Shown: positions 30,111 through 33,151, counted from the first letter of the stretch. The stretch: 64,000 bases of DNA from Candidatus Marinacidobacterales bacterium (GCA_965226495.1 OZ245365.1:4640001-4704000), one strand, 5' to 3'. Numbers and translations are program-made. Notes: a model not told the origin generated them from the sequence alone.

Positions 30111-30220
30111 CCCTCACCCTACCCTCTCCCAAAGGGAGAGGGTATAAAGGAAGGAAGCCAACGTGCCCCCTCACCCTACCCTCTCCCCAGAGGGGAGAGG
30201 GTTTCAAGGAAGGAAGCCAA
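30111..30220. repeat. Tandem pair of BoxC-like REP units
   Basis: CCCTCACCCTACCCTCTCCC..GGGAGAGGG at 30111-30142 and 30168-30201, each followed by AAGGAAGGAAGCCA. Confidence 0.85.
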
Positions 30221-30233
30221 CCAACTTGTGGTG

Positions 30234-30325: not shown

Positions 30326-33151
30326 TTACTCTTCCGACGCCAAGGCCAGAAGCCGTGCCCTGGTTTCGGCAGACCAGCCCGAGTGGGCTTCCAGAACGCG
30401 ACCCTCCTCGTCGACGAGAAGAGTCAAAGGCACGGTGAGCTGCGGCGAAGCGTAGATCTTCTCGATGTCCTTCTCATCGAGTAGGACGTTCTTATAGCGG
30501 ATCGAGCGCTCTTCGAGGTAGGAGAGAGCGGCATCCCGCTGCCCGAAATCCAAGCTGATACCGATTAGATCGACGCCGGCGGCGGCGAGTTTGTCTTGAA
30601 GCCGCGACAGCTCGGGCATTTCGACGGAGCACGGGACACACCAAGTCGCCCAAAAGTTAACGACGGTCTTTCGCCCCGGCTTCAAGAGCGAACCCAGCGT
30701 GCCCGAGGACCCCGAGGACGAGGACGGTAACGTTACCACCGACAGATCCGGGAGCGGCTCGCCCTTTCGAAAGGCGAGACTGTGGAATAGTTGTTCCGAC
30801 GCCGGCTCGGGGTCGGGCAAGCTTCGGAGGCGCTCGGAAACCATCTCGACCGTCCCGGCGCCTTCCACCAGCCGTAGGCTTTGACCGGCACGGACATCGG
30901 GGTACGTCTCCACCAAACCGGAAGGCCACGTCACCGTCAGCTCGTAGCTTTCATGCTGGCCCGAGCGGGGGCCGAGCCCGAAGACGAGCCGGGGGTCGCC
31001 TGCAGAAACGAATCCGCTACCCCCGGACTTGATCTTGGTTTGAGTTCCTAGTGGCGTCCGCAGGCGGACCACGGTCCCGAAAGCATCTCGAGCCGACTGC
31101 GTCCCCTCGAGACTCACTCGTATAAAGCCGTTTTCTTGGCCCACGTTGTTCCGATAAAGACGCCGGCCCTCGTTTTGAACCGGCACCACCACCACATCCA
31201 GATCCCCGTCGTTATCGAGATCGGCGAACGAGCAGCCGCGACCATCCCCAATGGAGTCCAGGCCCGAAACACCGGAGATCTCGAGATAGGTCCCGTCCCC
31301 TCGGCTCAAGTACAAACCGTCGCGCTCGAAGCCGCTGAATGACAGACCTTTTTCGAAGATCTCGGTCATGTGGTGGTTCTGGTAATCGGTATTCCCCGGC
31401 TGCTCGACTTTAGCCGCGGACGCCACCACGTGGCGCCAAAAGAGGCTTCAGGTGTCTTTCATGGTCTTGCCAGACACGAAGCCGTTGACGGAGAAGACGT
31501 CTTCCCAGCCATCGTTGTCCAAATCGAAAAAGCCGCCGCCATATGCCCAACCGGCGCCGAAGCCTCCGGCACGCTGCGCGACGTTCTTGAACGTACCGTC
31601 ACCCTGGTTCTCGAAAAGAGAGTTGCCGGCGGCGAGTTTCTTGAGAACCACTCCATCTGGGGTGGCGTCGGGCATGAGCCTTTTCAGAATCCGATTGCCC
31701 GCCGTCGAGGACATGTTCGTTACGTGGAGGTCCAAATCTCCATCGTTGTCATAGTCCCCGAAGGAGACACCCATGCCGTTTCCCGGATCGACGACACCCC
31801 TTTGCACCGCCTCGTCGCGGAAGTGGTCACCGTAGTTCACGAAGAGCGCGTTTTCGCCGAAGTCATTGCTCACGTACAAATCCTGGCGACCGTCCGCGCT
31901 CACGTCGGCGAATGCCGCGGCGTAGCCCCAACGCGAATCATCGACCCCCCATTTCGTTCCCTCTTCCCGGAAACGGCCGTTTCCCTGATTGATAAAGAGA
32001 AGATTGGGAGTACCGTTGCTCGCCTTGCTCCAGGAATCGGGCATCACCTGACCGTAGAGGTTGTAGGAGGTGACATAGATGTCGGTCCACCCGTCTCCAT
32101 TTACATCCGCCGCCGCGGCGCTGAAACCAACCGCTCGGTGGTCGACGCCCGCCTCGCTGGACACATCCAAGAAGCGCAGCTCGCCGGTGGGCCGCAGCTG
32201 GTTTTGAAGCAAGCTCTGCTCTCCGACGGCGGCGAAGAAAATATCCAGGTCCCCATCGTTGTCGTAGTCGAGGAGTAGCGTTCCTGTTCCGTCCCGGCTG
32301 TAGCCCACGAGCGTTTCCTCAGAGGCATCGCGAAACGGACCCTCCCACTCATTCAGAAACAGTCGATTCCCCAGCACCCCGCTGGTCACGATGTCGAGCA
32401 ACCCGTCGTCGTTGACATCGCCCACCGCCGCACCATGAGCCTTGAAGCCGTCGTTGGGAGGCTCGCCGAAAGCAGGCACGTCCTCCCACAGCCCGGCGGG
32501 TCGGGTCACATCGGAAAACAGGTCCTCCTCGGACAGCATGCTTTCAAGCGACTCGAACGACCAACTCCGCACTCTCCAAAGTTCTTCAGGCACTCTCTCG
32601 ACACGAACCTGAATCCACCCCCGTACCCATTCGCGCCGTCCCTTCCCGTCGCGGCCTACGACAAAGAAGAAGACGCGGCTTTCGCCGCGCGTCGGCGTAC
32701 CACCATCGAAGTCTGCCCCTTTCACCTTGAGGCGGACATCCTCGATTTCGGTGAAATGAGACAGAAACCCTTCGACACTCTGAAGGAAGTCGGCACGTTC
32801 GGTCACTTTGGGAGCCACGTTCAGATCCCAGCCGTGCCGACGGATCCATTTAATGTCGTGCTGCACAGCATCCGGTCGAGTGGGAAACAAAGTGGCCTCG
32901 AACTCCTCGGGGAAGTATTTTGCAGCCTTCCCGAGGTCTTGTCGGCGAAGCTCGACCGACAAGTCCAAGAGCTGGTTTGCCAGCGACTCTGAATCGTCTT
33001 CTATCTGCTCGAGCGCGGCGCGATCGAGCTCGAGAGAAGACCGTTCCTGGGCCAAGGCCTCATCGGGTAAGGTGCTAACTAGCAGGACGAGCGCCAGGGC
33101 TGTCGGCAGATGGGTGCGACCCCAGCCAACCCAAGAGACATTTAGTGACAT
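30326..33151 (-). CDS. Secreted FG-GAP/CRTAC1 (ASPIC-UnbV) protein with C-terminal TlpA thioredoxin domain; in-frame TGA at 31448-31450 (candidate selenocysteine)
   Basis: ORFs 31448-33151 and 30326-31429 are in the same frame; DxDxDG repeats continue across the TGA; ASPIC/UnbV region and NFWATWCVPC follow; a hairpin lies directly after the TGA. Confidence 0.75.
31412..31447 (-). promoter_or_regulatory. Bacterial SECIS-like hairpin
   Basis: After UGA: AGCC-UCUUUU-GGCGCCAC-[GUG]-GUGGCGUC-CGC-GGCU; the apical loop starts with G 18 nt after the UGA. Confidence 0.6.

Follow-up and report, generated by a model that had tools for sequence, protein, structure and literature searches.

A single gene interrupted by UGA

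The window analyzed here, 64,000 nucleotides (nt) of DNA from Candidatus Marinacidobacterales bacterium (GCA_965226495.1, OZ245365.1:4640001-4704000), corresponds to G000:C1:4640001-4704000 of a single-contig genome of 6.34 Mb and contains, on its minus strand, two open reading frames (ORFs) of 567 and 367 codons that together appear to constitute one gene for an exported selenoprotein, with an internal UGA codon read as selenocysteine (Sec). The features on which this prediction is founded are the following (positions are counted from the first letter of the window; SECIS, selenocysteine insertion sequence).

30326..33151, minus strand: one gene, a frame of 941 codons with a single in-frame TGA at codon 568 (frame read-through)
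31448..31450, minus strand: UGA codon 568, probably read as Sec (conserved column, Sec machinery and agreeing contigs)
31419..31437, minus strand: SECIS-like hairpin, GGCGCCAC-GUG-GUGGCGUC (folding and family comparison)

The gene starts with the ATG at 33151 and runs through 567 codons to the TGA at 31450..31448. Between this TGA and an in-frame GTG (31429..31427) lie six sense codons (S L F W R H); the GTG is the codon from which ORF callers begin the 367-aa ORF, and the frame, the same as that of the 567-codon ORF, is closed by the TAA at 30328..30326. The read-through product consists of 941 residues, with the UGA in the context GKTMKDT-U-SLFWRHVVAS, and in orthologues the alignment continues across the TGA over residues ~20-940 at 45-91% identity. 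A first-pass annotation of this DNA had noticed that the two ORFs share a frame and are split by a TGA plus six codons, that FG-GAP repeats occur on both sides of the TGA and that the downstream part has no signal peptide of its own; the coordinates agree with ours, DxDxDG motifs can be located before and after the TGA, and inspection of the sequence bears out the lack of a second signal peptide. We estimate the probability at roughly 0.85-0.9 that 33151..30326 is a single gene encoding an exported protein of 941 residues in which UGA 568 is decoded as Sec by SelB and tRNA-Sec, with the hairpin serving as the SECIS element. This figure is a joint one: it extends to the proposition that the '567-aa' and '367-aa' ORFs are an artefact of taking UGA as a stop, and to the existence of a large family that comes mainly from Acidobacteriota and also includes truncated relatives bearing the labels Latescibacterota and Eisenbacteria, along with some members from marine metagenomes.

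The artefact is not confined to this genome. A search for relatives of residues 480-700 in a collection of 5.8 billion proteins listed 120 sequences, with Acidobacteriota, Latescibacterota, Eisenbacteria and Tara marine metagenomes as their sources. Among these 120 listed relatives, 97 are no longer than 625 aa, and all 97 end in K/E/N/D/A-D-T just before the UGA; in the source databases they are named 'FG-GAP-like repeat-containing protein', 'VCBS repeat-containing protein' or 'hypothetical protein'. In 35 of the best 150 cluster representatives (out of 86,124), the match extends as far as residue 566 or 567, and in nine it begins at residues 570-595. Because every one of the 97 short relatives ends at the UGA codon, the family is systematically truncated in annotation and, judging by these termini, is widely deposited as two pieces, an FG-GAP/VCBS protein and a thioredoxin-like piece.

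Conservation of the TGA codon

Whole genomes were searched in six frames with stops read through, comprising 41 related genomes and a sample of 401 genomes of the phylum (the tallies of orthologues and of selA for the latter include three unpublished genomes, G064, G089 and G192, none of which underlies any specific claim). Among the 41 related genomes, 14 yielded a match at E <=1e-30. The site is spanned by 13 orthologue rows (64-100% identity), each of them with exactly one TGA; eight paralogue rows (33-36% identity; sequence groups B and C) also carry one TGA each, and these 21 TGAs share one column of the MAFFT alignment. The rows free of stops are either N-terminal pieces ending short of the site (L040, L047 and L048) or remote FG-GAP proteins with 32-36% identity and a match that ends at or before residue 774 (L039, L049, L050, L053 and L054). 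In three genomes the orthologue lies in two pieces, L036/L040 (G004), L038/L047 (G034) and L037/L048 (G036), with the break at residues ~240-330, upstream of the Sec site; the pieces are adjacent and in different frames in G004 and G036 and ~7 kb apart in G034, and a frameshift, an insertion or an assembly artefact could account for the split.

In the 401-genome sample, matches at E <=1e-40 were found in 118 genomes, and one TGA is present in 44 of the 45 rows with at least 45% identity that span residue 568 (the column was checked in 29 of these 44, for which the loci were fetched, and the other 15 rest on the 'one TGA' flag). The single exception (L091 from G428) has Ser at the site, ends at residue 782 and contains no thioredoxin domain. 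A TGA orthologue with at least 45% identity that reaches the C-terminus is held by 42 of the 401 genomes, many of which encode further paralogues. In an alignment of 95 read-through translations, the site column contains U in 65 rows, another residue in 22 and a gap in eight remote rows, so that all 65 aligned TGA-bearing homologues, which represent at least three sequence groups and 27-91% identity, share the TGA column. The motifs around the site include KDT-U-SLFWRHVV, KDL-U-SFFWRQVV and GDS-U-SxFWRAV, and three database homologues (P0004, P0020 and P0246) have Cys in the Sec column.

The first-pass annotation had considered the column after KDT as the place where homologues would betray Sec, by a conserved TGA or Cys, or would instead reveal Trp, Arg, Gly or variable residues. 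The 65 TGA codons and the three Cys residues correspond to the former outcome; Trp, Arg and Gly never replace the site within the orthologue group, and variable residues occur only where the thioredoxin CxxC motif is lost or degraded or the domain is missing, save for 11 forms that keep CxxC. The TGA itself is also found in independent assemblies, as the same annotation had suggested verifying in reads: contigs of four runs from four studies span 31250-31650 and differ nowhere from the window, although one of them may be its source.

The genome that contains the window encodes three family members, namely the gene described here and two paralogues with the TGA in the same column. The paralogues L045 (G000:C1:2541925-2544624) and L051 (G000:C1:3213749-3215473) show ~27-34% identity to it, have the FG-GAP/UnbV_ASPIC/AhpC-TSA architecture and possess an intact CxxC each; L045 is located in an open frame of ~1266 residues and has extra sequence beyond the matched part.

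Selenocysteine machinery of the genome

The search for Sec machinery that the first-pass annotation had recommended identified all of its components in the same genome. The tRNA-Sec scores 70.9 bits (cut-off 47) and is called tRNA-SeC, with the anticodon tca, by ARAGORN; selB (377.7 bits), selA (570.1 bits) and selD (332.6 bits) all exceed the curated cut-offs. The selB gene (L009, G000:C1:4706066-4707955) lies ~2 kb past the end of the window and ~33 kb from the selenoprotein gene. The selD gene (L019, G000:C1:5697778-5698710) has an in-frame TGA of its own, in the context SAG-U-ASK, and is itself a selenoprotein gene. Given that 301 of the 401 genomes in the phylum sample have a selA match, 297 of them over the cut-off, Sec use is, by this gene count, very common in the Acidobacteriota lineage sampled.

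The SECIS-like hairpin

A spacer of 10 nt, AGCCUCUUUU (31447..31438), separates the UGA from a hairpin composed of the 5' arm GGCGCCAC (31437..31430), the loop GUG (31429..31427) and the 3' arm GUGGCGUC (31426..31419). The stem comprises 8 bp, the hairpin begins 11 nt past the UGA and the loop begins 18 nt past it; the loop GUG is identical with the false 'start codon' of the downstream ORF. These positions agree with the first-pass annotation, which placed a hairpin directly 3' of the UGA with a G-first loop 18 nt away; the AGCC/GGCU outer pairing that it drew forms when the 45 nt following the UGA are folded but not when the wider 71-nt context is. In models of the bSECISearch type, a bacterial SECIS element is a stem-loop immediately downstream of the UGA that has G or U in an apical loop located ~16-37 nt away, and this geometry is found in the window and at all 65 sites. 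An Rfam search at E values up to 10 gave only a chance match to ovine_lenti_FSE (11.4 bits against a gathering score of 45). The weight that the first-pass annotation gave to the hairpin of this one sequence was too high, the hairpin being non-significant on its own; as indicated by the comparisons described below, its evidential value comes from the family, not from the single sequence.

A hairpin occurs at the same place in all 65 sites (61 distinct 63-nt contexts), with the 5' arm starting 11-14 nt after the UGA in typical forms. It persists through changes of codons, as in CGC CAC GUG GUG GCG, CGU CAG GUC GUG ACG, CGG CAA GUC GUG UCG and CGU GCG GUC GCA CGC, while the encoded peptides vary accordingly (WRHVVA, WRQVVT, WRQVVS and WRAVAR). 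Among 57 distinct 39-nt sequences, pair 18-28, which joins the third base of the Arg codon to the first base of the Ala/Thr/Ser codon, is C-G in 34, G-U in five, U-A in five, A-U in one and G-C in one. Altogether 74.1% of the cells are paired, a fixed-register count that under-describes the family in that group C and certain other forms pair in registers displaced by 1-2 nt and are counted as unpaired, and none of 500 shuffles reaches the observed pairing or covariation score.

The homologues without Sec, in which the peptide is nearly the same (SFFWRQVVAKS), provide a natural control. The mean fold energy is -12.46 kcal/mol in the 65 Sec forms vs -9.23 kcal/mol in the 22 non-Sec homologues, and the median stem is 6 bp vs 5 bp. 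When each sequence is compared with its own synonymous recodings, the share of recodings with an equal or better fold has a median of 0.16 in Sec forms and 0.54 in non-Sec forms, and it is at most 0.05 in 18 of 60 Sec forms and two of 22 non-Sec forms. Metagenome contigs of other organisms, found in four runs, align only over 31414-31472, that is, the UGA and the hairpin, at 90-95% identity; the depth over this segment is 127-382, whereas most bins on either side have 3-9 (some bins of run X5 reach 55), so that the segment stands out as a sharply bounded island of nucleotide conservation.

Domain architecture and relationship to CRTAC1 and TlpA

The predicted product consists of the following parts (AF2, AlphaFold2).

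33050..33151, minus strand: probable Sec-type (secretory) signal peptide, residues 1-34, MSLNVSWVGWGRTHLPTALALVLLVSTLPDEALA, then QE (read from the sequence)
32507..33022, minus strand: N-terminal alpha+beta domain, residues ~44-215 (AF2 secondary structure)
31112..32446, minus strand: FG-GAP beta-propeller, CRTAC1-like, residues ~236-680 (Pfam FG-GAP_3, Foldseek and phmmer)
31352..31450, minus strand: helical insert of the propeller, residues 568-600, with helices 568-579 and 588-600 (DSSP of the AF2 model)
30875..31084, minus strand: UnbV_ASPIC domain, residues 690-759 (PF07593, 7.4e-13, 48.6 bits, cut-off 23.4)
30377..30766, minus strand: TlpA/ResA-like thioredoxin-fold domain, residues 796-925 (Pfam Redoxin, AhpC-TSA and Thioredoxin_8)
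30629..30640, minus strand: CVPC redox motif with Cys838 and Cys841 (sequence; WCVPC is residues 837-841)

The AlphaFold2 model, built from an alignment of 49 sequences, has a mean predicted local distance difference test (pLDDT) score of 91.3 and a predicted template modelling (pTM) score of 0.90, with residues 1-17 disordered (pLDDT <50), and shows the order signal peptide, alpha+beta domain, propeller, UnbV_ASPIC, linker and thioredoxin fold. The signal peptide displays a basic n-region, a hydrophobic core and A-L-A, a pattern shared by the N-termini of the orthologues. The N-terminal domain is formed by long helices followed by a curved antiparallel sheet, with a block pLDDT of mostly 92-97 from residue 51. 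A Pfam search with the 941-residue protein (P0001) gave no match in this domain; the homologue P0048 carries a precomputed match to PF13577, which we take to be the SnoaL-like family, and going by the model the domain may be NTF2/SnoaL-like. The propeller is recognized by Pfam FG-GAP_3 (2e-38) in six stretches and contains motifs of the Ca-binding DxDxDG type both before the TGA (D543/D545/D547/G548/D551) and after it (D644/D646/D648/G649/D652). The model places Sec568 at the start of helix 568-579, which belongs to a two-helix insert between blades. Thus, the sequence of domains put forward by the first-pass annotation, from signal peptide through a helical/NTF2-like domain, propeller and ASPIC/UnbV to a TlpA domain with WCVPC, is recovered, with the NTF2 assignment kept as a possibility.

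The closest structure is that of murine CRTAC1 (PDB 9ETN), in which an FG-GAP propeller is likewise followed by UnbV_ASPIC. Chain 9etn_A is the top match in Foldseek (E 3.1e-28, template modelling (TM) score 0.74 on the target, 605 columns) and in phmmer (6.9e-25), which aligns only residues 238-493 and 588-747, so that residues 494-587, with the start of the Sec helix, have no phmmer counterpart in the murine protein. Unlike the bacterial protein, murine CRTAC1 has no thioredoxin domain and, in the aligned range, no N-terminal alpha+beta domain. With FG-GAP and UnbV_ASPIC both above the Pfam cut-offs and the structural match to 9etn_A, the protein belongs to the CRTAC1/ASPIC/UnbV family, and the full-length relative P0006 is named 'CRTAC1 family protein' by NCBI. 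We know of no catalytic function for this family.

The C-terminal domain shares the fold and the WCxPC motif with TlpA, ResA and DsbE (CcmG): it matches TlpA in PDB (1jfu) at 2.7e-12, and Foldseek aligns it with ResA, DsbE and TlpA chains at TM scores of 0.6-0.8 on the target. The scores for the NCBIfam equivalog models are far below the cut-offs (TlpA NF047696, 61.6 vs 230; ResA NF002854, 49.8 vs 170; DsbE TIGR00385, 46.2 vs 123.15), and by this measure the domain is TlpA-like, not an orthologue of TlpA, ResA or DsbE. Whereas those proteins carry a membrane anchor of their own, the domain is fused here to a propeller protein of 790 residues. An analogous arrangement may exist in Neisseria PilB (Trx-MsrA-MsrB), reportedly a reductase fused to its own TlpA-like recycling domain: in both cases the oxidised Cys or Sec of an exported catalytic domain would be reduced by an attached TlpA-like domain fed by DsbD/CcdA. 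The catalytic parts are not known to be related in sequence or fold, and the analogy is one of co-occurrence.

Selenoproteins with a thioredoxin fold are already catalogued, including a UGC-containing TlpA family, a WAxxUGC ResA-like family, a Redoxin family with UxxC and a thiol:disulfide interchange family with UxxC (PMC13188914, Table 1). Like the protein described here, they are bacterial, predicted to be extracytoplasmic and Sec-dependent, and have the TlpA/redoxin fold. In those families Sec is part of the thioredoxin motif, whereas here the motif is all-Cys (CVPC) and Sec is located 270 residues upstream, in the propeller insert; the score against NF041054 is 36.5 bits, with a cut-off of 300.

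Partner cysteines and a putative Sec-thioredoxin relay

An intact thioredoxin domain with the WxxWCxxC motif is present in 61 of the 65 Sec forms and in all three Cys forms. The four Sec forms that lack this domain have a Cys two residues after Sec. Since 64 of the 68 Sec/Cys forms possess CxxC and the other four UxC, a partner cysteine is found in every form. The four UxC forms (L104, L105, L106 and L110, from G133, G433 twice and G055) share the motif DG-U-[TRS]-C-[LV]-W and have a hairpin that differs in sequence and is located at the same distance from the UGA.

The forms with neither Sec nor Cys at the site behave differently. On a FastTree tree built from the propeller columns alone (103 rows), 32 of the 36 such rows either lack the thioredoxin domain or have a degraded motif (for example APLC, SASC or APPS) and four keep CxxC; among further cluster representatives that span the site, the motif is degraded in 20 and kept in seven. 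Each of the two traits needs at least seven changes on this tree, and in seven independent Sec/Cys contrasts the CxxC trait changes in the same direction in about five, in the opposite direction in none and not at all in two.

A relay is proposed because Sec or Cys at the site co-occurs with a partner cysteine. Sec568, at the N-terminus of a helix inserted in the propeller, would be the redox-active residue of an extracytoplasmic oxidoreductase; it would react with an oxidised substrate, after which a selenenylsulfide would form, to be resolved by the CxxC that the protein itself carries in its C-terminal TlpA-like domain or, in the UxC forms without this domain, by the neighbouring Cys. The TlpA-like domain would then be returned to its reduced state from the cytoplasm, via the single membrane protein of the CcdA/DsbD type that the genome encodes (one DsbD_TM/CcdA gene, 65.3 bits). 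The first-pass annotation had already raised the possibility that Sec is recycled by the attached thioredoxin domain, and the co-occurrence across homologues lends support to it; on balance, we lean slightly towards such a Sec568-to-thioredoxin relay. The rarity of Cys forms, together with the free variation of the site after the loss of Sec, would fit a catalytic Sec that is poorly replaced by Cys.

Counter-evidence and alternative explanations

Several observations weigh against the interpretation given above. With respect to the site, the 40 further divergent loci were hand-picked from the 401-genome list and do not represent a random sample; the Cys forms are rare, three vs 65 Sec forms, which is unusual for a selenoprotein family; and the forms that lack Sec show various residues in this column (S, E, G, N, D, Q, A, R, Y or L), not Cys. 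With respect to the machinery, no selA match above the cut-off was found in four TGA-carrying genomes, G121, G270, G295 and G358, all of which do have tRNA-Sec (68-76 bits) and selB (294-383 bits) over the cut-offs. The completeness of these four genomes is 99, 95, 69 and 96%, respectively; assembly gaps or another route to Sec-tRNA could explain the missing matches.

With respect to the hairpin, the element of the window taken alone has a fold z-score of -0.62, with 47 of 200 shuffles folding at least as well, and of 1000 synonymous recodings 18.7% equal or surpass its fold and 13.8% reach a stem of 8 bp or more; it is weak as evidence because the peptide W-R-H-V-V-A in GC-rich codons almost dictates the stem. 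In the family, sliding the 3' partners by -3 still yields 71.5% pairing, owing to the GUG GUG repeat, slides of -1 and +3 give similar covariation scores, and, the sequences being related, the family tests overstate their result, as do the Mann-Whitney comparisons of Sec and non-Sec folds, which treat kin as independent. With respect to the relay, CxxC is kept without Sec or Cys in 11 homologues (L084, L101, L102, P0013, P0127, P0143, P0208, P0214, P0235, P0243 and P0245; the site of P0143 is unaligned), the sign test on the contrasts gives a median p of only 0.0625, and the gene neighbourhood contains no evident redox partner or operon.

Among the alternatives, the one that fares best accepts Sec as genuine and denies its recycling by the fused thioredoxin domain: Sec568 would be a metal or metalloid ligand or a structural residue, and the TlpA-like domain would serve other periplasmic substrates. 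The 11 homologues just listed imply that the domain can be maintained without Sec, and the scarcity of Cys forms could point to a ligand chemistry specific to selenium. Nevertheless, the presence of a partner cysteine in all 68 Sec/Cys forms, the loss or decay of CxxC that mostly accompanies the loss of Sec (32 of 36 rows on the tree) without a single contrast in the opposite direction, and the predicted placement of Sec at a helix N-terminus, the classical position of a redox-active Cys or Sec, all point the other way, and we regard this explanation as rather unlikely.

A programmed stop, as opposed to a Sec codon, would make the 567-residue protein the main product, with the downstream part made separately or only under selenium sufficiency and with both forms functional. 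Public gene callers do yield exactly these two pieces, and, as the decoding of UGA as Sec in bacteria competes with release factor 2, some truncated product is to be expected. However, the short product would end within the propeller, before the D644-D652 blade and UnbV_ASPIC; the downstream piece has neither a signal peptide nor a conserved start, given that its GTG is the hairpin loop, of which the third base varies (GUG, GUC or GUU); and both the frame and the protein sequence are conserved across the TGA in all orthologues. The isoform switch that the first-pass annotation offered as its alternative thus finds no support here, its short form stopping before the last propeller blade, and we consider it highly improbable.

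The UGA might also be decoded as a standard amino acid (Trp, Cys, Gly or Arg), by near-cognate suppression or under a reassigned code, and some bacteria are indeed capable of read-through without Sec. If the code were reassigned, many scattered TGA codons would be expected, whereas each orthologue has one per ~940 codons, and the neighbouring genes give normal ORFs under table 11. Furthermore, this genome has the complete Sec machinery, tRNA-Sec and selB are present even in the four carriers without a selA match, and the site is occupied by Cys in three homologues and never by Trp; there is accordingly very little room for this explanation. A pseudogene or a sequencing or assembly error, which a lone in-frame stop in an otherwise intact gene of one genome would resemble as a recent nonsense mutation, is for practical purposes refuted by the identity of the codon in 65 of 65 aligned carriers at 27-91% identity, the conservation of 373 downstream codons and the agreement of contigs from four studies. 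A single TGA that occupies one column down to 27% identity and is followed by 373 conserved codons is therefore not compatible with a pseudogene, an error or a reassigned code.

Genomic neighbourhood

The genes around the selenoprotein gene encode an M23 peptidase, a DUF4388-DnaJ-TPR protein, an amidohydrolase, a Ser/Thr kinase with PD40 repeats and a major facilitator superfamily (MFS) transporter, as well as a DAO oxidoreductase, a PP2C phosphatase, an esterase, a sulfatase and a sigma-54 regulator. A scan for promoters and terminators around the gene was uninformative. The 230-nt gap between the stop of the selenoprotein gene and the downstream Ser/Thr kinase gene contains two copies, 85% identical, of a 39-nt element (30124-30162 and 30183-30221); each copy holds a short palindrome, CTCTCCC..GGGAGAG, and may be a repeat element or a terminator.

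Novelty and implications

Table 1 of a review of prokaryotic selenoproteins (PMC13188914, May 2026; 119 families and subfamilies) has no entry for FG-GAP, VCBS, ASPIC, UnbV, CRTAC1 or a propeller, and a term search of the same paper likewise turned up none of them. The main texts of the deep-Sep (PMC12013277), BSepDB (PMC13326102), Zhang 2006 (PMC1794560) and Peng 2016 (PMC5029168) papers do not mention FG-GAP, and ASPIC, VCBS and CRTAC1 are likewise absent from these main texts where looked for, as judged by term searches; the supplementary tables could still list the family. Judged from listings, the literature that combines selenoprotein or selenocysteine with FG-GAP, ASPIC or CRTAC1 consists only of unrelated animal or medical work. 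In NCBIfam, no full-length model covers the protein, which obtains only the sub-threshold TlpA, ResA and DsbE domain matches. From these comparisons, the decoding appears to be ordinary bacterial Sec insertion, and the family appears to be uncatalogued and to represent a new architecture.

The family adds to the known selenoproteins a large exported group with a new architecture, and its recognition corrects a systematic annotation error by which the members are split in two. The association of Sec with a partner cysteine, and of Sec loss with CxxC decay, suggests a testable mechanism and provides the first functional handle on the bacterial CRTAC1-like proteins. The finding also bears on the use of selenium by Acidobacteriota. 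Somewhat short of an even bet, and hence only tentatively, we propose that this is the first selenoenzyme built on a CRTAC1/FG-GAP propeller, a selenium-dependent extracytoplasmic oxidoreductase in which Sec would cycle with the built-in TlpA-like domain. On this same tentative proposal, a CRTAC1-type selenoenzyme would be abundant in soil and marine Acidobacteriota and their neighbours and would perform chemistry in which Cys can hardly replace Sec, as suggested by the rarity of the Cys forms and by the decay of the redox relay that goes with the loss of Sec. If true, the proposal would endow the enigmatic CRTAC1/ASPIC/UnbV superfamily with its first catalytic function and would imply that the recruitment of Sec is not confined to thioredoxin-like and metal-cofactor active sites.

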